From Patescibacteria group bacterium (lineage in GTDB: Bacteria > Patescibacteriota > Minisyncoccia > Phycocordibacterales > UBA9973): a DNA stretch of 64,000 bases. The notes below the pieces were generated by a model that was not told where the DNA came from, searched no databases, and saw only the letters and a program-made list of their open reading frames with translations. Location: NCBI GenBank assembly GCA_030916965.1, contig JAUPVQ010000012.1:776-64775 (forward strand), given 5' to 3'. Position 1 is the first letter of the stretch; every line of letters starts with the position of its first letter. A program made the translations under genes and the position numbers. This document shows, one piece after another, positions 7,881 through 59,005 of this stretch.

Positions 7881-7954
7881 TGCGCCCTCATGGATTCGAA
7901 CCATGGACCCCAGAGGTATAAGCTCTGTGCTCTAACCAACTGAGCTAAGGGCGC
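7881..7954 (-). tRNA. tRNA-Ile with anticodon UAU (reads AUA)
   Basis: Hand-folded cloverleaf: acceptor GCGCCCT/AGGGCGC, D-arm GCTC-AGTTGGTTA-GAGC, anticodon stem CAGAG/CTCTG with loop CTTATAC (U33, A37), T-arm CATGG-TTCGAAT-CCATG, discriminator A. No encoded CCA. Confidence 0.8.
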
Positions 7955-10443: not shown

Positions 10444-10833
10444 GGGGATGACGGGCTTTCGACAGGAAGTGCCATTATGTATATGCGTGTCGAGTACTCA
10501 GGAACCTCGCAAAACTTCTTGAAAAAGACTAAGTGCAAACAAAGTCGCTTCAGTAAAATCTCCTTACGCTTTTGCGTCTGGAAATTTTGCTCTATCCTTC
10601 GCCTAATAGGTCAAGGTAGTGTCCACTCTATCGACATCCGATAAATAGTTTGGGCATAATCAATCGGATTACGAATTCTATACCGCTTGAATAGAATTTC
10701 GACAATCAAAAGCTCGGTATTGTAGTGTTTTGAATGTTCTCTAGCTACATTATTTAAAACCAATGAACACTCTACACACGTAGAATTATATATAATCATT
10801 TTTTGCACGGCGGTTCAACTCCGCCCATCTCCA
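10444..10833 (+). ncRNA. ssrA: tmRNA (ssrA)
   Basis: 5' end GGGGATGACGGGCTTTCGACAGG and 3' end GGCGGTTCAACTCCGCCCATCTCCA form a tRNA-Ala-like acceptor with G3:U70 and a T-arm. An internal tag ORF, gca aac aaa gtc ... tcc ttc gcc taa tag, gives ANKVASVKSPYAFASGNFALSFA with a tandem stop. Lies immediately downstream of smpB. Confidence 0.85.
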
Positions 10834-10842
10834 CAGACAATA

Positions 10843-26189: not shown

Positions 26190-26192
26190 TAA

Positions 26193-26226
26193 AAATACCA
26201 CCCATTGGGTGGTATTTTTATATTAA
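26193..26226. terminator. Intrinsic terminator after rplT
   Basis: AAAAATACCACCCAttGGGTGGTATTTTTAT. Confidence 0.6.
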
Positions 26227-26520
26227 TTAATCAAATTTTCCATCTAATTCAGTTATTTGGAAAGGTTTGTCCCATAAATCCTTATCAATATTTACAAAAC
26301 TTTCAAACATCTCTTTTGCTTCATCAAAATTTTTAGCATAAATTTCCATTCCCATACCATTTGGACCATTCTGTTCAGTAGCATCGAGATTATATAATTT
26401 AATTTCTTTACTACCTTTTCCAAATTCTTCTTTGTATAAAGCTATTTTAGCACTATTAGCTTTAGCTTTATTTTCTGCTTCGACTCCCCATTTTTTTTGT
26501 TCATTATTTAATCCTTCCAT
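26227..26520 (-). CDS. Hypothetical small cytoplasmic protein (97 aa)
   Basis: Clean ORF with no signal peptide or TM segment. Expressed from the poly-G spacer promoter at 26552-26581. Confidence 0.45.
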   Translation of the reverse strand: MEGLNNEQKKWGVEAENKAKANSAKIALYKEEFGKGSKEIKLYNLDATEQNGPNGMGMEIYAKNFDEAKEMFESFVNIDKDLWDKPFQITELDGKFD

Positions 26521-26551
26521 AAATTTTATTGGGTTATTTACTAATAGCCTA

Positions 26552-26581
26552 ATAATACCCCCCCCTGTGGCATCAAGTCAA
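26552..26581 (-). promoter_or_regulatory. Sigma70-like promoter with a G8 homopolymer inside the -35/-10 spacer
   Basis: Minus strand reads cccTTGACTtgatgccacaGGGGGGGGTATTATtagg: -35 TTGACT, 18-nt spacer ending in G8 (plus-strand C8 at 26558-26565), -10 TATTAT, about 30 nt upstream of the start of 26227..26520. Confidence 0.55.
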
Positions 26582-26680
26582 GGGTTTAATTTTACTTGCA
26601 TAATATGGATGTATATAGTATATTATCTACATAAACAAGAAAAAGACCCCTGATATGTCTCGGCATATCTGGGGGCTTTT

Positions 26681-27163
26681 TCATTTTATCTTTAGTTTTT
26701 CAACAAATTGATCAAGGATTACAATTGGAACATTTGTACGTTTTAATAAGAGCGATAGATACTTGCGATTCGGCGATACAATTTCAATGTGAATATTTTT
26801 CTCTTTCAAAAACTCAACAATACAGTGGTAATCACCATCTCCAGAAACAAGGACTACGCTTTCTAGCTTATTTTCATAAAAATCTTTTGCAATAGTTAGT
26901 ATCAATTCTCCGTCTACATTTCCTTTAGTTTTGCCCTCTTTGCTAGTAATTGTAGGCTTGAAAGAAATATCATACCCAATATTCTGTAAGTAATTATAAT
27001 ATTCGAAGTTATCGGGTAAAAGTCCCATAAAAAGTATGGCTCGATTTACGCCAAATTTATCACGGAGCCACGACCGAAAAGATTTATAATCAAGCTCCCA
27101 GCCACTTTGCTTGACGCCGAATTTTAAATTTGAAGAGTCTATGTATGCAGTAGAATTTTTCAT
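26681..27163 (-). CDS. NYN-domain (LabA-like) predicted ribonuclease
   Basis: 160 aa. AILFMGL...VVLVSGDGDY...IEIVS acidic-residue pattern of NYN/PIN-like nucleases. Confidence 0.7.
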   Translation of the reverse strand: MKNSTAYIDSSNLKFGVKQSGWELDYKSFRSWLRDKFGVNRAILFMGLLPDNFEYYNYLQNIGYDISFKPTITSKEGKTKGNVDGELILTIAKDFYENKLESVVLVSGDGDYHCIVEFLKEKNIHIEIVSPNRKYLSLLLKRTNVPIVILDQFVEKLKIK

Positions 27164-39732: not shown

Positions 39733-39788
39733 AATTATAAGGAGTTAAATTTTCTCTCATCATACCCCTTACACTAAAAATGTCAACG

Positions 39789-42752: not shown

Positions 42753-43097
42753 TTATTTCTTCTTTGTATCTGTTGCACCCTTTGCAGCCTTGGCAGCAGT
42801 AATCTCGGCCTCTTTCTTCTTTTGCTCTAATTCTTTTTGCATTTTACCTCCATGGCGTACGAACTTACGAGTTAGAGAAAATTCTCCTAAACGGTGTCCT
42901 ACCATGTCTTCTGTAACCAATACTTCAACGTGCACCTTACCATTATGTACTCCGAACATGAATCCTACCATTTCTGGAGAAATTTGACATGCACGAGACC
43001 AGGTCTTTATCATACCTGTTTCGATTGGTTTCTTGCCAGCGATTTTTTTCAAAAGTCGCTCGTCTACGTATGGTCCTTTTTTAAGTGATCTTGTCAT
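42753..43097 (-). CDS. rpsS: Ribosomal protein uS19 (with a lysine-rich C-terminal extension)
   Basis: [19 protein letters not shown]... Confidence 0.9.
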
Positions 43098-43190: not shown

Positions 43191-43826
43191 ATGAATATAA
43201 TCAAATCCAAAGAATTGGCCAAAAAACTCTTGGAAATTAAGGCCGTAAAATTAAATGTTGAAAATCCGTTTACTTGGACATCTGGTACGATATCCCCTAT
43301 TTATTGTGATAATCGTATGGTACTTTCTTATCCAGAAATTCGAACTTTTGTAAAAAATGCTCTGGCTGAAATTATTCAAGACAAATTTCCAAACACAGAA
43401 GTCGTAGCCGGAGTAGCAACTGCAGGAATTGCACATGCAGCACTAGTATCGGATGTATTAAATTTACCGAATTGTTATGTACGTCCCGAGCCAAAAAAAC
43501 ATGGGATGAAAAATCAGATCGAAGGCAATCTACCAAAAGGTAGCAAGGTTGTACTAGTAGAAGATTTGATTGCAACTGGTAAAAGTAGCTTCCAATCAAT
43601 CCAGGCCGTTCGCGAAGCAGGCTCCGAGGTGATTGGGCTTGTGGCATTATTTACGTATGGATTTCCAGATGCAAAAGAATCATTTGATAAAGAAAATATT
43701 CCAACATATACTATTTCAAATTTCGAAACTTTGTGCACAGTTGCAGTAGAAGAAAATTTGCTCGATAAAAATAATCTAGAGAAAGTTATAGAATTCGCCA
43801 AAAACCGCGACGGGTGGAGAAAATAA
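43191..43826 (+). CDS. pyrE: Orotate phosphoribosyltransferase
   Basis: 211 aa. PRPP-binding loop VVLVEDLIATGKS. Confidence 0.85.
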   Translation: MNIIKSKELAKKLLEIKAVKLNVENPFTWTSGTISPIYCDNRMVLSYPEIRTFVKNALAEIIQDKFPNTEVVAGVATAGIAHAALVSDVLNLPNCYVRPEPKKHGMKNQIEGNLPKGSKVVLVEDLIATGKSSFQSIQAVREAGSEVIGLVALFTYGFPDAKESFDKENIPTYTISNFETLCTVAVEENLLDKNNLEKVIEFAKNRDGWRK

Positions 43827-43829
43827 ATA

Positions 43830-44558
43830 CTACTTGGCTATAAGCATTGCATCTATTATTTGTTGCAACACAAGTTGAGCTGCTTCAGCCCTATCTTTTT
43901 GTTGTGTGATACCTCGCCCTACAACAATAGCAGTAGCTCCATTTAAAATTGCATCTTTTGGTGTCATTGTGCGATTTTGATCATTGGTTACTGTCCAATC
44001 AGGTTGGATCCCTGGAGTTATTTTTATCAAATCGTTAAATTGTGGGTCCATGCATAGCATCAATAATTCATTTGGGGAACACACAATACCATCCATTTTT
44101 GAATTGAGTGCATCCTCTGCAAATTGATAAACTTTTTCATTGACTGGTGATCCAAATATATGCAAGCAATCTTCTTCAGTATGAGAAGTCAGTACGGTAA
44201 CACCCAAAATACAAGTATCCCCTTTGTTTTCAACGGCTCTTTCCAATGCTCTTGCTCCAGCTGAGCAATGCACTGTCATCATATCTACATTTTTTTGAAC
44301 CAATTTGGCCGTTGCATGACCTACTGTATTAGGGATATCGTGGAATTTACCATCAAAAAAAACTTTTGCTTTATATTTTTTAACAAGATTTATCATTGTG
44401 TCTATCCCATAAGCAGTACTTACTTCGAGCCCTATTTTATACCATCCACAGAATAAATATGTTTCTTTAATTAAATCTTCGATTTCGCCTAGACTAGCAA
44501 CATTATCGATAGCAATAATTAATTTATCTTTTGGTGTTTTAAATAGATTGTCTTTCAT
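43830..44558 (-). CDS. pyrF: Orotidine-5'-phosphate decarboxylase
   Basis: 242 aa. DGKFHDIPNTV (Lys-Asp-Lys-Asp array) and IVVGRGI. Confidence 0.85.
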   Translation of the reverse strand: MKDNLFKTPKDKLIIAIDNVASLGEIEDLIKETYLFCGWYKIGLEVSTAYGIDTMINLVKKYKAKVFFDGKFHDIPNTVGHATAKLVQKNVDMMTVHCSAGARALERAVENKGDTCILGVTVLTSHTEEDCLHIFGSPVNEKVYQFAEDALNSKMDGIVCSPNELLMLCMDPQFNDLIKITPGIQPDWTVTNDQNRTMTPKDAILNGATAIVVGRGITQQKDRAEAAQLVLQQIIDAMLIAK

Positions 44559-44559
44559 G

Positions 44560-45000
44560 TTAATTTAATATTATTTTTGGTAAGAATATTATCAAGCCTA
44601 TCACACTTGCCACAACAACAGAAATAAGGACTGCTCCTGCCGCGACATCCTTTGTTGCTTTCGCGTATGGGTGATATTCAGGACTAGTAAGATCTATATC
44701 TATCTCCATAGCAGTATTAAATGCCTCTGAAGCGAGCACGAAGCCCATAGCCAGCACTAGAACTGACCATTCAGCATGTGATATATCAAATTTGAAACCA
44801 AGAACTATAGCAACTATAGCTGCCACCATGTGCACCCAAGCATTGTGCTGTGTACGAAGCATAATCCCAATTCCTCGAAAAGCATGCTTGAAGCTACGCG
44901 CCCGAGCAATAATTGAGAAGTTCTTTTTAGTCAAAAATTTATCCATATACAGCATTATAACAAAAAATACCCATAACGGGTATTTTTTGTTATTCACCAA
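44560..45000 (-). CDS. dgkA: Prokaryotic diacylglycerol / undecaprenol kinase (DgkA family)
   Basis: SFKHAFRGI...EAFNTAMEIDIDL...AKDVAAGAVL parallels E. coli DgkA. The start may be at the internal MDKFL. Confidence 0.75.
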   Translation of the reverse strand: MVNNKKYPLWVFFVIMLYMDKFLTKKNFSIIARARSFKHAFRGIGIMLRTQHNAWVHMVAAIVAIVLGFKFDISHAEWSVLVLAMGFVLASEAFNTAMEIDIDLTSPEYHPYAKATKDVAAGAVLISVVVASVIGLIIFLPKIILN

Positions 45001-45010
45001 ACTTAATAAA

Positions 45011-45661
45011 CTAAAGAGGCCTTTGACTTGTTGTAGGATCTAATAACTTACCCATATTAGGAAGAGGAATATCACCTTCTGCTGAGACACTATTTACACC
45101 CGCTTCGTCGGGATTAATAAATTTTGTTATTAATAAAGCTTTAGTTTCTTTATTTATAGTTCCGCTCGCTGGAAGTTTGTATTTCTTTTGGAATTTAGTA
45201 ATTGCTGATTTCGTCATAGATCCATAATTTCCATCTACAGCACTAATTAATCCTTCATTTTTTAAAACAAGTTGTATTTTTTTAACATTTGTATTATTTT
45301 TATTCCCTAAAACAGGTGTTTTTGCATCAAAAACTTGTGAAGCACCAGTTGTAGGAAGTATAGCCCCTCCTCCATAAATACCATCTTCTTGCGGATTTTT
45401 ATTAGCAGAATATCCACGTGTATCACACCAGATCTTTGTACCATCACCTTTCATTTCTCCCCCAACTGTATATGTACTACCATCTGAATATGTAATAGTT
45501 ACCTGGCAAAGATTCCTACCTGAATCAGGATCATGACCTAAATATTTAGTAGTTCGTCCAACCTCATACTTTACTTCTTTTGCAAAAATGAACCCAGTAA
45601 ATGAAACAAACATAAGTATAAAAACAAAACTCCCTAAACCAATTTTTAAAAATTTCTTCAT
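45011..45661 (-). CDS. Secreted protein with a C-terminal peptidoglycan-binding (PG_binding_1-like) domain
   Basis: Signal peptide/anchor MKKFLKIGLGSFVFILMFVSFTGFIFA. C-terminal VKKIQLVLKNEGLISAVDGNYGSMTKSAITKFQKKYKLPASGTINKETKALL. Confidence 0.6.
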   Translation of the reverse strand: MKKFLKIGLGSFVFILMFVSFTGFIFAKEVKYEVGRTTKYLGHDPDSGRNLCQVTITYSDGSTYTVGGEMKGDGTKIWCDTRGYSANKNPQEDGIYGGGAILPTTGASQVFDAKTPVLGNKNNTNVKKIQLVLKNEGLISAVDGNYGSMTKSAITKFQKKYKLPASGTINKETKALLITKFINPDEAGVNSVSAEGDIPLPNMGKLLDPTTSQRPL

Positions 45662-45724
45662 AATATGAATAGAATTAAATTGTGTGTTGTTATAATAAAA
45701 TTACACACAACTTAAACTAATAAC

Positions 45725-45755
45725 ATTGTACCCCCCCCCCTCGGCCTCCTGTCAA
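45725..45755 (-). promoter_or_regulatory. Sigma70-like promoter with a G10 homopolymer inside the -35/-10 spacer
   Basis: Minus strand reads atatTTGACAggaggccgaGGGGGGGGGGTACAATgt: -35 TTGACA, 19-nt spacer ending in G10 (plus-strand C10 at 45731-45740), -10 TACAAT. Lies upstream of 45011..45661. Confidence 0.55.
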
Positions 45756-45794
45756 TATATTGTGGGGATAAATAATTTACTAAATACCCTATAT

Positions 45795-45826
45795 ATAAAT
45801 AATACACATTTAAGCATATGCATAAA
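45795..45826. repeat. Palindromic repeat element, copy A
   Basis: ACACATTTaaGCATATGCatAAATGTGT. About 27/32 identical to copy B. Terminator-like hairpin just 3' of gene 45849..46457. Confidence 0.6.
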
Positions 45827-45848
45827 TGTGTTTCATTTTATTTTTTTA

Positions 45849-46457
45849 CTACTTTTTTCTAATTCTTAGATACAACAATGATACTGCTACTGCGCCTAGG
45901 ACGTCTAGGAGCATATCCTTTTGTGCGTCCCAGATGTCGCCTTGAGAGCCTAGGAAGGCTGCTCCACTCTCCCCTCCATACAATTCTGCATACCACCATT
46001 CTGTCCATTCGTAGAACACAGCCACAAATGCTATAAAAAATATAGAATGAGTTATCGCGAGAAACCTTTTGGCCACCAACTTCCTTTCCACCATGTATTC
46101 AATAATCGGTAATGCATAGAATCCTACTGTAAAGTGCCCAATACGATCATACATATTACGCTCAAATCCGAAAAAGTTATTAAAGAAATCAAATGGTACA
46201 CGCTCAAATGTATAGTGCCCTCCAATAGTATGCCAAAATGGCAATATGAACATTAGTATATATGAAGTATTAGAGAATCGTACACCTCGGTAATATAGGA
46301 TTACTATAAACAAAACGAGCAACATAATAGGAATATTCTCGGCATACCAAACGCTCCGTGAATAAGGATTAATCCCTGCAACAATTGCCTCTATTACATA
46401 AAGGCCCAATAAAATATGTGGTAAATATTTTTTCATATTATAAATTACTAAATACAA
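45849..46457 (-). CDS. Polytopic membrane protein (202 aa), possibly YjdF/DUF2238-like
   Basis: 5-6 TM helices. Motifs HTIGGHYTFERVPF and ERNMYDRIGHF. The family assignment is from memory only. Confidence 0.45.
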   Translation of the reverse strand: MYLVIYNMKKYLPHILLGLYVIEAIVAGINPYSRSVWYAENIPIMLLVLFIVILYYRGVRFSNTSYILMFILPFWHTIGGHYTFERVPFDFFNNFFGFERNMYDRIGHFTVGFYALPIIEYMVERKLVAKRFLAITHSIFFIAFVAVFYEWTEWWYAELYGGESGAAFLGSQGDIWDAQKDMLLDVLGAVAVSLLYLRIRKK

Positions 46458-46776
46458 ATAATAAAATAATCATAGGCACAATAGTTAGAACTAATTCAAC
46501 AATAAAAAATATCCGGGCTATTCTATATGCTGAAGGACTTTTGGTGAAAATAATTACAAGTGCCGGAACAATGAATAATAAGATCGCAAAACTACCAGAA
46601 CTCCTGTTAAAAATAATTGGCAAGAGGAACAAAAAAGCATATATAACAAGCTGTATATAAGCAATAACTAAGATTACTTTAGATTTATGAAATTCTTTTA
46701 CAACAGCACTAACTGGTATTGGAACTGGTGGTGGAGTTATGATAGGTGGTATTTCCATAGATATTTTATTCCCCAA
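46438..46776 (-). CDS. Small 2-3 TM membrane protein (112 aa), paralogue of 47969..48289
   Basis: Pro-rich N-terminus. Shared block VVKEFHKSKVILVIAYIQLVIY versus VVAKEFKKNINAIILACVQIIVII. Confidence 0.5.
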   Translation of the reverse strand: MGNKISMEIPPIITPPPVPIPVSAVVKEFHKSKVILVIAYIQLVIYAFLFLLPIIFNRSSGSFAILLFIVPALVIIFTKSPSAYRIARIFFIVELVLTIVPMIILLFVFSNL

Positions 46777-47218
46777 CTACTTTGTGGCGACTTTGAGTGA
46801 GGTATATACCATATGTACATACGGCAATAAGGGCGAGCATTACTATGTAGAACTGGATTGTAGTGTGATGATTGATGAAATATACACTAACTTGAAGCAG
46901 TAGTTGCATAGCCAAGATTATACTGACCACGAAATATGGTACAAGTGCTACTGCATAACGCTCTTGTCTGTGAGAAAGTGATAGATTCAATACTAATGCA
47001 ATAACTAGGAAGAATATTATTACAACAGCATGCACAATGATCACACCTAAGTTGTCGAAATAGTCGAGCGGTGGCAATGCAATCAAACGGCCTGTATCGT
47101 AGAGTACCCTCTCGGCTAAGGCTAGAAGTGATAGGCCAAGGAGGGTCACAATAAATCCTCCAGTATTTGTAAACTTTGTTTTGAAAACATTTTCATTTTG
47201 TGTTGTTACAAGTGCCAT
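46766..47218 (-). CDS. 4-TM membrane protein (150 aa), same architecture as 48292..48768
   Basis: Overlapping or coupled genes. Hydrophobic profile. Confidence 0.5.
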   Translation of the reverse strand: MALVTTQNENVFKTKFTNTGGFIVTLLGLSLLALAERVLYDTGRLIALPPLDYFDNLGVIIVHAVVIIFFLVIALVLNLSLSHRQERYAVALVPYFVVSIILAMQLLLQVSVYFINHHTTIQFYIVMLALIAVCTYGIYLTQSRHKVVGE

Positions 47219-47222
47219 ATAA

Positions 47223-47867
47223 TTATGATTTCATATATTTTTGAATAAAAAGAATCGATCCTGTAAGTACAATAATTATAAGTATCAATACAACATACAC
47301 ACCATAAGCTGCATTAGCATTCAAAATATAGTTGCTAGTATCCCAAAGTAGTCGTACGAGCAAAAATCCGCTAACCAGGAAGTATGGCTGGGACATAATA
47401 AGGAACTTTTTCTTATGATCTCGGAAAGATTCATGCAAGATAAAAGCCACTACTATAAACGGGACAATCAGCATCACATCAAAAATCAATTTAGCATTTA
47501 TACTATTTGTAAATATAGCACTGTCATCTATTACCTTATTGAGGAGTATAAATATAGCAGCACAAAGCACTGTCGCAAGACCAATACTATATGGTGAATT
47601 GTACTCAACTGAGTGATTCTGGTTAATAGTATGACTACTTGCCACTGTAGACTTAGCAACATTTATAGATACTGTTTGTTGTGGAATATTTATTTGAGCT
47701 GTACCTGCTGGCACCGGCATCCCCTTCAAGAGCTTCATATGTGAATATGCTTCCTCTACTTCATTACTCTGCCATCCAGCCTTGGCCAATACATCCCGAA
47801 CAGCAGACTCGGTAAAACCCTGAGCCTCGACTGTCTTTATATAGTTCACCAACTGCTCATTTATCAT
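47223..47867 (-). CDS. Membrane protein (214 aa) with an N-terminal soluble helical domain
   Basis: N-terminal ~60 aa soluble (LVNYIKTVEAQGFTESAVRDVLAKAGWQSNEVEEAY), then 4 TM helices. Confidence 0.5.
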   Translation of the reverse strand: MINEQLVNYIKTVEAQGFTESAVRDVLAKAGWQSNEVEEAYSHMKLLKGMPVPAGTAQINIPQQTVSINVAKSTVASSHTINQNHSVEYNSPYSIGLATVLCAAIFILLNKVIDDSAIFTNSINAKLIFDVMLIVPFIVVAFILHESFRDHKKKFLIMSQPYFLVSGFLLVRLLWDTSNYILNANAAYGVYVVLILIIIVLTGSILFIQKYMKS

Positions 47868-47935
47868 GTATTTAAATTATACTACTTCTCAAAATTTACA
47901 CAATCAAAAACCAATTTTCCCCTTAATAAAAATGA

Positions 47936-47965
47936 TACACATTCTAGCATATGCTGAAATGTGTA
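47936..47965. repeat. Palindromic repeat element, copy B
   Basis: ACACATTCTAGCATATGCTGAAATGTGT. Near-perfect palindrome followed by a U-run on the minus strand. Confidence 0.6.
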
Positions 47966-47968
47966 TCA

Positions 47969-48289
47969 CTAATTTAATTTAGATAAAACAATACTCAAAA
48001 AATAGAAGAAAAAAAATATATACTCAACAGTCATTAAACTTTTTCCTATCTTATAGATAGATTCATCTTTCTTATTTGAAAACAAAATTAGAAGCGCGGG
48101 AATAATTGCAATTATCCACCAAAATGGGACATAGTAGAGTAAGGATTCTGGGTGAACTCGCACACGAAAAATATTAAATATAATAACAATAATTTGAACA
48201 CAGGCAAGAATAATAGCGTTTATATTCTTTTTGAATTCTTTCGCAACTACCGGCACATTTGATTTATTGTTAATTGTTTGTTGTTCCAT
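47969..48289 (-). CDS. Small membrane protein (106 aa), paralogue of 46438..46776
   Basis: Shared KEF-containing block. 2-3 TM helices. Confidence 0.5.
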   Translation of the reverse strand: MEQQTINNKSNVPVVAKEFKKNINAIILACVQIIVIIFNIFRVRVHPESLLYYVPFWWIIAIIPALLILFSNKKDESIYKIGKSLMTVEYIFFFFYFLSIVLSKLN

Positions 48290-48291
48290 AC

Positions 48292-48768
48292 TTAAGACAT
48301 TGTTTGTTGATCTTGTAAAAAGCTTATCTCGCCTTCATATTTTGTTCTACCTTGCAATCGCTTTGTTACCGATACAAAACTCCCAATTACTACAATATGA
48401 AAGAGAGGGACAATTATAGTTCCACCATATTGCCAGCATAAAAATCCTAGTCCGGCTTCAGTTGCAACACCAGGCACGAACCAACCAACAAAAACTGAAA
48501 GAAACAATACTATTGATACTACCGTATACAAAATATATTTTTTAAAATTTAAAAACATTCCCAAAAATACAATCAAAATAGAGTTTGCAAAAAAATAAAT
48601 ATCCATAGGGCTATTTCTTAAATTATAAAACTCAGAAAAATCCAAATACATTGGGAAATTACCTATCCTTAATGTAAGATGTACAATTGTTAACCAAACA
48701 GACAATATTCCAACAATTATACAAAATATTGCCCATCGATTTCGTTTTTTATCTAAAATAATTTGCAT
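48292..48768 (-). CDS. 4-TM membrane protein (158 aa)
   Basis: Hydrophobic profile. 3 nt from the next gene. Confidence 0.5.
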   Translation of the reverse strand: MQIILDKKRNRWAIFCIIVGILSVWLTIVHLTLRIGNFPMYLDFSEFYNLRNSPMDIYFFANSILIVFLGMFLNFKKYILYTVVSIVLFLSVFVGWFVPGVATEAGLGFLCWQYGGTIIVPLFHIVVIGSFVSVTKRLQGRTKYEGEISFLQDQQTMS

Positions 48769-48813
48769 ACATGTATTGTATCATCTATAAAACAAACTAC
48801 AATCAAAATTTAT

Positions 48814-49548
48814 TTATTTCATGCCTCTTACTAGCTCGATTTCTGATTTTAGCTTTGTTTCGACATCCTTTGAGCTTTTTATAAAGTCTACAACGGTAAA
48901 GCCGTGGTTGGATGTTAGTTCGTCGCTATGATCAGGGGTTGAATTAAATAATGCCGATTTATTACCTGCTGAAAAATTATCCTCTTTTATTAAATCCGGA
49001 TTATTATAATTGCTAATTCCAAAAATATTCTCATTGACAACAAAAAGCTTTCCGTTCGCGCAAATACTCTTACTCTCAGCTTTAAACATAGTCTCGCTAG
49101 TTGGGGGTAGAGTATTAGTTTTGTTTTTTGTTTTTTGATACATTATGATTGCATTTTTGTCACCAAAAGATGCTAGCCTTGATTTATAGTAAATATGCTC
49201 CGAGGAATCTACCTCCCACTTATTTTGAGGTGCTTCTTTGTAAGATTGAAGCAAGTTATGTTTCTTGGCTTCAGCAAATAGGACATCCGAAAGACTATCA
49301 CAGGCCTCTTTGTGCTTATTTATTTCAATTGTTTGCTCTTGTGTAAGCTTTATATTTTGGGTTGCACATTCTACCTTTTTTTGTTGTGCCTCTGAATAAC
49401 CAAAAGATGCTAGAAATAATGCCGATGCCACACCGAACCTCTTAAGTGAAGTGCGTAAAGATTCAAAAGTAGTCGGATCAGTATTTTCCTTGACCTCATT
49501 TTTGTTATTTAGAACATTGTCTTGTGATGCAAAATTAAATTTTTCCAT
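48814..49548 (-). CDS. Hypothetical secreted or membrane-anchored protein (244 aa)
   Basis: Hydrophobic signal-anchor LKRFGVASALFLASFGYSEA after a 35-aa N-terminal stretch. Cys-containing soluble domain. Confidence 0.45.
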   Translation of the reverse strand: MEKFNFASQDNVLNNKNEVKENTDPTTFESLRTSLKRFGVASALFLASFGYSEAQQKKVECATQNIKLTQEQTIEINKHKEACDSLSDVLFAEAKKHNLLQSYKEAPQNKWEVDSSEHIYYKSRLASFGDKNAIIMYQKTKNKTNTLPPTSETMFKAESKSICANGKLFVVNENIFGISNYNNPDLIKEDNFSAGNKSALFNSTPDHSDELTSNHGFTVVDFIKSSKDVETKLKSEIELVRGMK

Positions 49549-49622: not shown

Positions 49623-50474
49623 CTATTTTGATTTTCTTGATTTTCCAACTTTTCTTCGAGATACAACAAACATGTTTGAGTATTTCTTTGGTGTTCGAGT
49701 CTTTTGGCCTTTACCTGTTGGCTTACCATACACACTCTTGGCACGGCGTAGTCCTCGTCCTTGTGCACCTTCACCTCCTCCGTATGGGTGATCCACTGGG
49801 TTCATGGCACTACCTCGAACTGTTGGACGGATACCCTTCCATCGGCTCTTGCCGGCTTTACCAAAGTTTTGAAGAATGTATTCTGAATTTCCAACTTCAC
49901 CGATTGTTGCCCAACATTTCTCGCTAACTTTGCGAACTTCTGTTGAAGGCATTTTCAAGTTTGTATATCCATTGTCATTTGCCACAACTTGCGCAAATGT
50001 ACCAGCACTGCGAACCATCTTTGCACCATTACCTGGCTTGACCTCTACGTTGTATACAAATGTACCAACTGGGATCACTGATAGTGGCAAACGGTTAAGT
50101 GTAGTAAGTGGAGCCTTTTCGGATACCATAAACTTGTCTCCTACTTTGATAGATTTTGGTAGTACTGTGTAGCGCTTCTCACCATCGGCATATACTGCCA
50201 ATCCTATGAATGCATTACGGTTCGGATCATATTCAACAGTTGTGATCTTTGCAGGGATATCATGCTTGTTGTACATGAAGTCTACATCTCGGTATAGGCG
50301 CTTGTTACCACCACCTTTGTGGCGAGTAGTAATACGGCCTTGGTTGTTGCGTCCTACAGAGCGCTTGAATCCATGTGTCAGAGACTTCTCTGGAGTACTT
50401 GTAGTCAAGACACCTCGGTATGTAACTGTAGTCTCGTGACGCTTTGATGGAGTTGTTGGTCTATATGTTTTCAT
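49623..50474 (-). CDS. rplB: Ribosomal protein uL2
   Basis: 283 aa. GRNNQGRITTRHKGGG...PVDHPYGGGEG. Confidence 0.92.
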   Translation of the reverse strand: MKTYRPTTPSKRHETTVTYRGVLTTSTPEKSLTHGFKRSVGRNNQGRITTRHKGGGNKRLYRDVDFMYNKHDIPAKITTVEYDPNRNAFIGLAVYADGEKRYTVLPKSIKVGDKFMVSEKAPLTTLNRLPLSVIPVGTFVYNVEVKPGNGAKMVRSAGTFAQVVANDNGYTNLKMPSTEVRKVSEKCWATIGEVGNSEYILQNFGKAGKSRWKGIRPTVRGSAMNPVDHPYGGGEGAQGRGLRRAKSVYGKPTGKGQKTRTPKKYSNMFVVSRRKVGKSRKSK

Positions 50475-58921: not shown

Positions 58922-59005
58922 CTATATCTAAATTATACCCCGTAGTGAGATTTCTCACAAATTCTACTACCGGGTATATAGATGAGTACCCGCTCTCCAA
59001 TGTAA

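Follow-up and report, generated by a model that had tools for sequence, protein, structure and literature searches.

Poly-G tracts in the promoter spacers of two strain-specific ORFan genes in Patescibacteria: candidate phase-variable promoters

Introduction

Can a run of G's inside a promoter serve as a switch in bacteria that have few recognisable regulators? Patescibacteria (CPR) are ultra-small, mostly episymbiotic organisms with ~1-Mb genomes in which such regulators are scarce; to our knowledge, little has been established about how they create phenotypic diversity where they meet host cells. The question is raised by two sites in a 64-kb, 38% GC segment of a bacterial chromosome (the whole stretch of DNA that was analysed, hereafter the window), which belongs to a MAG that NCBI labels "Patescibacteria group bacterium" and carries infC-rpmI-rplT, truB, an S10/spc ribosomal cluster, pyrE/F, and tmRNA. 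The initial annotation of this segment read site 1 (26552-26581) as TTGACT-N10-G8-TATTAT, a promoter with an 18-nt spacer about 30 nt before a 97-aa ORF, and saw the same architecture at a second site (45725-45755). In its view, two such sites suggested deliberate design rather than chance, with phase variation or a mechanism that depends on the G tract as possibilities. Are these tracts real, and are they placed where chance would not place them? Do they vary in length, and, if so, what would that variation do?

Two predicted poly-G promoters in 64 kb

At site 1, the minus strand (26581..26552) reads TTGACT-TGATGCCACA-GGGGGGGG-TATTAT, with a spacer of 18 nt. The -35 hexamer TTGACT (26576..26581, minus strand) is followed by the non-repeat part of the spacer, TGATGCCACA (26566..26575), and then by the mutable part, a G8 homopolymer (26558..26565; C8 on the plus strand) that directly adjoins the -10 hexamer TATTAT (26552..26557). 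The two hexamers match the sigma-70 consensus at 10 of 12 positions, and the ATG at 26520 lies 31 nt past the -10. It opens the 97-aa acidic ORFan MDQ5971286.1 (26227..26520, minus strand; 28% GC), the single gene of its transcription unit. Site 2 (minus strand, 45755..45725) shares this architecture and reads TTGACA-GGAGGCCGA-GGGGGGGGGG-TACAAT (TTGACA-N9-G10-TACAAT), with a spacer of 19 nt: the -35 hexamer TTGACA (45750..45755), the non-repeat part GGAGGCCGA, a G10 homopolymer (45731..45740), and the adjoining -10 hexamer TACAAT (45725..45730), with a consensus match of 11 of 12. The ATG at 45661, 63 nt past this -10, begins the 216-aa ORFan MDQ5971314.1 (45011..45661, minus strand), a secreted protein that has a signal peptide and a PG_binding_1 domain. 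Both hexamer scores are among the window's best, and on the strength of sequence we infer that TTGACT/TATTAT and TTGACA/TACAAT are the promoters actually used.

Each poly-G unit is monocistronic and bracketed by hairpin terminators, and no better promoter was found between the terminator and the ATG of either unit. The terminator of the upstream NYN gene (26640..26682) shields the site 1 promoter from read-through, and a bidirectional hairpin terminator (26191..26219) closes both the 97-aa unit and rplT; the latter hairpin is cassette-specific, since the related loci L131 and L145 bear another one. At site 2, the upstream border is the DUF2238 terminator, and a hairpin terminator of the 216-aa gene (44962..44988, minus strand) stands before the DAGK promoter. 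The 216-aa gene's 5' leader also holds a 13-bp perfect hairpin/palindrome (45675..45715, minus strand; dG -12.8 kcal/mol, z -3.3), a possible further layer of control above the poly-G switch, whether as an operator or as an RNA element for attenuation or stability. Neither ORF is preceded by a Shine-Dalgarno (SD) sequence, which is normal because this organism does not use one (a loose match in 11 of the window's 78 genes); many window genes look leaderless, with TATAAT 3-10 nt ahead of the ATG. No known RNA family was found at site 1 or site 2; the window yields tmRNA (10444-10836, plus strand; 131.7 bits) and a single tRNA (7881-7954, minus strand), and the listed ORFs that overlap these two genes are spurious.

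The products say little about function. The 97-aa protein matches only itself in 5.8 billion clusters and in 1.84 billion representatives (full HMMER), and neither Pfam nor PADLOC returned anything for it; its single-sequence AF2 model has a pLDDT of 70, and Foldseek found no match for that model in the PDB at E <= 0.001. The 216-aa protein likewise matches only itself in 5.8 billion clusters. Since both are self-matches only, the tracts cannot be traced through orthologues. A search of JGI metagenomes for the site 1 pattern gave 0 matches.

Could two such sites arise by chance or by faulty assembly? The window contains just two G/C homopolymers longer than 6 nt, and both are the promoter tracts (C runs: length 5, n = 12; length 6, n = 4; length 8, n = 1; length 10, n = 1; G runs: length 5, n = 4), so that 2/2 of these runs fit TTGACN-N9/10-Gn-TAnnAT. 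The pattern TTGACW-N8-14-G7-TAYWAT occurs twice in the window against 0.00 expected (100 dinucleotide shuffles). Both tracts recur in at least 4-5 independent Logan assemblies of the same population as well as in the NCBI MAG, and therefore they are not assembly artefacts. The architecture described in the initial annotation is thus confirmed at both sites, and it is more than chance.

The tracts stand against a background of G-rich promoters. Extended -10 TGn elements are common in the window (T at -15 in 21 and G at -14 in 15 of 37 promoters), GGGTANNAT is enriched (14 matches against 6.6 expected, with 0/100 shuffles reaching 14, and 13/14 on the gene-rich strand), and GGGG immediately precedes the -10 box in the promoters at 39759-39786 and 58932-58940. 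It is plausible that short G runs such as these last two are seeds for tract expansion. Because G at -14 is common, a G tract that abuts the -10 keeps a favourable G at -14 at any length. Elsewhere in the window, TTGAC promoters are spaced at 15-16 nt, and by this measure the poly-G spacers of 18 and 19 nt are long for the genome.

Tract length between strains

A second strain (SRR22000184, from Logan) is 99.35-99.4% identical to the window and differs at both tracts: G8 in the window is G9 in that strain at site 1, and G10 is G9 at site 2. Apart from these two changes, the 8023 + 4848 aligned bp (12.9 kb) contain no gap, and they carry 51 + 28 mismatches (79 substitutions). The tracts are thus polymorphic between close strains with conserved flanks, on the basis of one independent second strain with a single change at each site; any homopolymer is prone to indels. 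Within one study the contigs all agree (G8 at site 1 in 4/4 of those shown, G10 at site 2 in 4/4), and no heterogeneity within the population was seen in consensus assemblies.

Two further candidates for variation were rejected. In a third strain (CXWK01090094.1, locus L145), an apparent G11 at site 1 might be taken for a third slippage allele; the alignment shows that it equals the G9 allele in flank-to-flank length and that GG replaces TA where the -10 box begins, either a mutation that destroys the -10 or a post-homopolymer sequencing error, and it was not counted as slippage. A break in contig L008 beside the G10 tract might be read as a sign of heteroplasmy, but a k=31 tract-length bubble would break the contig inside the tract, not 4 nt upstream of it.

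Across the sampled alleles of the two sites, the spacer is 18 or 19 nt; the canonical 17 nt is absent. With neither 17 nt nor the local 15-16 nt among them, the sampled states would all be suboptimal, or else spacing may matter less here. The G9 allele of site 1 (L010:5001-5348, P0003) has an additional consequence for annotation: gene callers extend the 97-aa ORF to 115 aa, starting from an ATG within the promoter spacer. This call is likely an artefact caused by the tract.

Recurrence among relatives and across phyla

Is this arrangement peculiar to one window? Two surveys stand in for a genome-wide count, the genome itself being covered over 64 kb. In the first, 234 kb from 36 loci of relatives were screened for tracts of G>=8, and two were found: the orthologue of site 1, and L147:1751 (TTGACT-N9-G8-TACACT), which precedes a 75-aa ORFan. 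With the two window sites, L147:1751 makes three independent G>=8 tracts in the clade, and all of them sit at TTGAC-N9/10-Gn-TA. The three promoters also have in common a TATTA[G/C]T at the predicted transcription start (26540-26546 and 45716-45722, both minus strand, and L147 ~1791). As a genome-wide promoter motif, TATTAGT was rejected: it is not enriched (14 found versus 13.5 expected).

In the second survey, a scan of GTDB with TTGAC-N9-13-G8-TAnnAT gave at least 120 loci. The matches listed come from Clostridia, Bacilli, Treponema, and others, and include 10 Patescibacteria/Saccharibacteria loci; among them, several genomes have 2-3 matches each. Without exception among the matches listed, the tract adjoins the -10 box, and the SD and ATG lie tens of nucleotides downstream. 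The spacer lengths of the matches listed are 19 nt (n = 46), 18 nt (n = 35), 16 nt (n = 17), 20 nt (n = 14), and 17 nt (n = 11), such that the canonical 17 nt is the rarest class and 19 and 18 nt are the commonest. The rarity of 17-nt poly-G spacers could reflect a default-OFF state, or an optimum that is shifted by G tracts.

What do these promoters drive? For the GTDB matches listed, 69/103 downstream ORFs have signal-peptide- or transmembrane-like N termini, compared with 186/1000 background ORFs (odds ratio 8.9, p = 1e-23, with a crude heuristic for the call). The CPR matches listed precede pilin-like, collagen-like, or other secreted proteins, or small ORFans. Among the matches listed there are also near-identical poly-G promoter-plus-leader modules placed before differing or paralogous genes in single genomes (L076:2829 and L111:1171; L029:7079 and L098:297-328 on the minus strand; L071; L077; L083). 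In one Saccharibacteria MAG, such repeated modules precede a 474-aa protein and a collagen-like 279-aa protein.

Cassettes that come and go

Both poly-G units behave as cassettes. Cassette 1, which is lineage-specific, consists of promoter, ORFan, and terminator (26222..26591, minus strand). In sister species whose NYN is 96-98% identical, the slot between NYN and rplT is occupied by a 0.8-kb segment with a 214-aa tRNA_anti-like gene and no poly-G; homology to the window ends 11 nt upstream of the site 1 -35 and resumes at the rplT terminator. CXWK01 keeps the site 1 poly-G promoter, including about 18 nt beyond the -10 box, and loses homology to the window 14 nt ahead of the ATG of the 97-aa ORF, after which entirely different cargo follows, ORFs of 47 aa and 155 aa. 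In more distant relatives, NYN and rplT are not adjacent. Cassette 2, which is strain-specific, again consists of promoter, 216-aa gene, and terminator (about 44967..45865, minus strand). It is missing from strains L180 and L181, in which DUF2238 adjoins DAGK and the DAGK protein is nonetheless identical to that of the window, and from the related species L135.

A contingency locus is expected to encode a product that is secreted or dispensable and that evolves fast, and the two genes are of this kind: both are ORFans that are absent or replaced in near-identical strains. Surface exposure is seen at site 2 only (signal peptide, PG_binding_1). The 97-aa protein is without a signal peptide and, judged by its sequence, looks cytoplasmic, unlike a surface protein.

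Other parts of the window also vary between strains. The S10/spc cluster is split by an accessory island of ~6.5 kb (43191-49548, between rpsS at 42753-43097 and rplB at 49623-50474) that holds five small membrane ORFans, DUF2238, the poly-G cassette, DAGK, pyrF, and pyrE, and whose content differs between species and, at 98-99% identity, between strains as well. In L180 and L181, a single 110-aa gene stands in place of the five membrane ORFans, and within this part of the island L006:467-754 cannot be aligned with window 47909-48258, in strains otherwise 99.4% identical. Elsewhere, a 1.7-kb presence/absence polymorphism at ~29247/29248 (L010:625-2325; L134:211-1911) encodes a 566-aa ORFan that is present in SRR22000184 and in a sister species and missing from the window; this ORFan has no match in Pfam or PADLOC.

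We speculate that the poly-G promoter might be a portable, conserved "expression head" for ORFan cassettes that Patescibacteria exchange or invent, a reading that we advance tentatively and consider improbable as it stands. Three observations prompt it: CXWK01 has the site 1 promoter before different ORFs, the three promoters of the clade share TATTA[G/C]T at the predicted transcription start, and repeated promoter-plus-leader modules precede unrelated genes in single genomes (L076/L111, L029/L098). If the idea were true, stochastic switching would be built into the newly acquired or newborn genes of reduced genomes, and the cross-phylum preference for 18-19-nt spacers would speak for promoters that are OFF by default, or for a spacing optimum that has shifted.

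A slippage model and its rivals

In total, the observations outlined above are best accommodated by phase or volume variation at both sites, in which strand slippage changes the promoter spacing, a reading to which we assign a probability of roughly 0.7. In this model, both sites are near-consensus sigma-70-type promoters, and part of each spacer is a G homopolymer adjoining the -10 box. Slipped-strand mispairing during replication would gain or lose single G's and thereby shift the spacer length, between 18 and 19 nt as observed and with 17 nt expected to be within reach. Such a shift would alter both the distance and the rotational register between the -35 and -10 hexamers, and promoter strength would flip heritably and reversibly among high, low, and off states. 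Because each promoter is predicted to drive one terminator-insulated, monocistronic, strain-specific gene (the 97-aa ORFan or the secreted peptidoglycan-binding ORFan), single cells of an episymbiont-type bacterium would differ in whether they express the two accessory genes. The model supposes that slippage occurs at a high rate within populations and that changes in tract length alter transcription. By analogy with the known switches discussed below, site 1 would be ON at G7 and site 2 at G8, each with a 17-nt spacer, or at a length shorter still if the local norm of 15-16 nt holds. With ON at 17 nt or less, the sampled populations would therefore be mostly reduced or OFF. The suggestion of a deliberate design based on phase variation or the G tract, made in the initial annotation, thus draws support from the length polymorphism, the position of the tracts in the clade, the recurrence in GTDB, and the known switches.

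Is it possible that the tract matters and its length does not? The main rival, which we regard as unlikely, treats the G run as a fixed part of the promoter, either an overgrown G-rich or extended -10 or a regulator binding site, with length drift that is incidental and near-neutral. It would account for the enrichment of GGGTANNAT (14 versus 6.6), for GGGG before other -10 boxes (39759-39786; 58932-58940), for G at -14 in 15/37 promoters, for the absence of a 17-nt spacer from every sampled allele, and for the GTDB matches listed, in which 17 nt is rarest and 18-19 nt commonest. However, an element of 3-4 G's does not need 8-10 of them, and no other runs of >=7 occur in the window; the 234 kb from relatives hold no G>=8 tract outside the promoter-spacer position, both tracts changed between strains without another indel in 12.9 kb, and the design is a proven switch in Treponema and Neisseria (PMC7864442). 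The tract lengths, their exclusive position, and the indel pattern count against a fixed element and weaken it. Could slippage instead act on translation? If translation began at the spacer ATG (TTGACTTG-ATG-CCA-CAG-GGG...), the tract would belong to an extended coding sequence and slippage would shift the frame of the 97-aa ORF, and indeed that ATG is in frame with the ORF in the G9 allele only, the allele that yields the called 115-aa P0003 from the spacer ATG through the tract. We find this highly improbable. The ATG sits inside the spacer, flanked by the -35 and -10 of the sole recognisable promoter, ~90 nt past a terminator, and for this reason no transcript is expected to cover it; the 97-aa ORF retains its own ATG at every tract length; site 2 has neither a start codon upstream of the tract nor an ORF through it; and the GTDB matches listed always have the tract abutting the -10, with SD and ATG tens of nucleotides downstream. 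The tract is upstream of the -10 box and not inside a reading frame, where a translational repeat switch would have it.

There is equally little room for the view that the tracts, or their differences in length, are due to chance or to sequencing and assembly errors at homopolymers. Illumina reads do worsen past long G runs, contig L008 begins 4 nt before the G10 tract, and the "G11" of L145, a contig that contains N's, is a G9 length with TA->GG and possibly post-homopolymer miscalls. Against this, G8 and G10 come back identical from 4-5 independent assemblies and from the NCBI MAG, the G9/G9 calls sit in an SNP-defined strain background, and the positional pattern has an expectation of zero. 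Might the G tract instead act through non-B DNA (G-quadruplex, i-motif, or A-form) that tunes melting or the effective spacer length, with no switching by length? Poly-G spacers do prefer 18-19 over 17 nt across phyla among the GTDB matches listed, and A-philic G tracts have a shorter rise per base pair, which could explain that preference. Still, quadruplex and i-motif were ruled out, with one run per site: a single run cannot form either structure intramolecularly, and there are no other G runs nearby. Moreover, PMC7864442 places the optimum of porA and tp0126 at 17 nt despite the tract. A structural role of this kind therefore strikes us as barely credible, and slippage-driven variation of promoter spacing is the reading that we carry forward.

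Meaning, and comparison with known switches

The mechanism itself is well known, and its occurrence in Patescibacteria appears to be unreported; full-text literature searches for phase variation through repeats in this phylum came back empty. Two observations are new: the promoters go with swappable ORFan cassettes, and spacers of 18-19 nt are preferred across phyla. The presence of two putative switches within 64 kb suggests that Patescibacteria count stochastic switching among their means of regulation, and with at least 120 loci the design is far more widespread in uncultured gut Firmicutes and spirochaetes than the few pathogen examples imply. There is also a practical lesson, in that consensus MAG sequences conceal tract variation and gene callers misannotate such sites, as in the 115-aa call.

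How closely do these sites resemble switches that have been characterized? Both hold a homopolymer of at least about 7 nt between recognisable -35 and -10 hexamers, as porA- and tp0126-type promoters do. In Treponema pallidum, the promoter of tp0126 (an OmpW homologue) has a poly-G between -35 and -10 whose length varies within and between strains, with transcription that peaks at 17 nt, and 76% of the G>=8 tracts of this species are variable in vivo (PMC7864442). The likeness lies in a G homopolymer of ~8-11 nt between the -35 and -10 of a sigma-70-type promoter, and Treponema MAGs are among the listed GTDB matches to the same pattern. The differences are that our host is a non-pathogenic, uncultured member of the Patescibacteria, that the targets are strain-specific ORFans and not conserved outer-membrane proteins, and that the window sites, known here from sequence, show 18- and 19-nt spacers only. 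The poly-G tracts of T. pallidum tprE/G/J and tprL are related, not identical. For Neisseria meningitidis porA, slippage of the spacer poly-G leads to high, intermediate, or no expression, a "volume control," as described in PMC7864442. This promoter, and also opc with its poly-C, resembles the present sites in having a spacer homopolymer that controls a single gene; in porA the tract is mid-spacer, in a Gram-negative pathogen, whereas here it always adjoins the -10 and keeps a G at -14 at any length. By this comparison, the window sites would belong to the same mechanistic class as porA.

A parallel that extends to lifestyle is the set of vlp lipoprotein genes of Mycoplasma hyorhinis, a host-dependent organism with a minimal genome, in which a poly-A in the promoter spacer switches individual monocistronic genes and paralogous promoter modules stand before different cargo. 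The same module pattern recurs in L076/L111 and L029/L098. The repeat is poly-A there and poly-G here, and vlp is a family of lipoprotein genes, whereas the window genes are unrelated ORFans.
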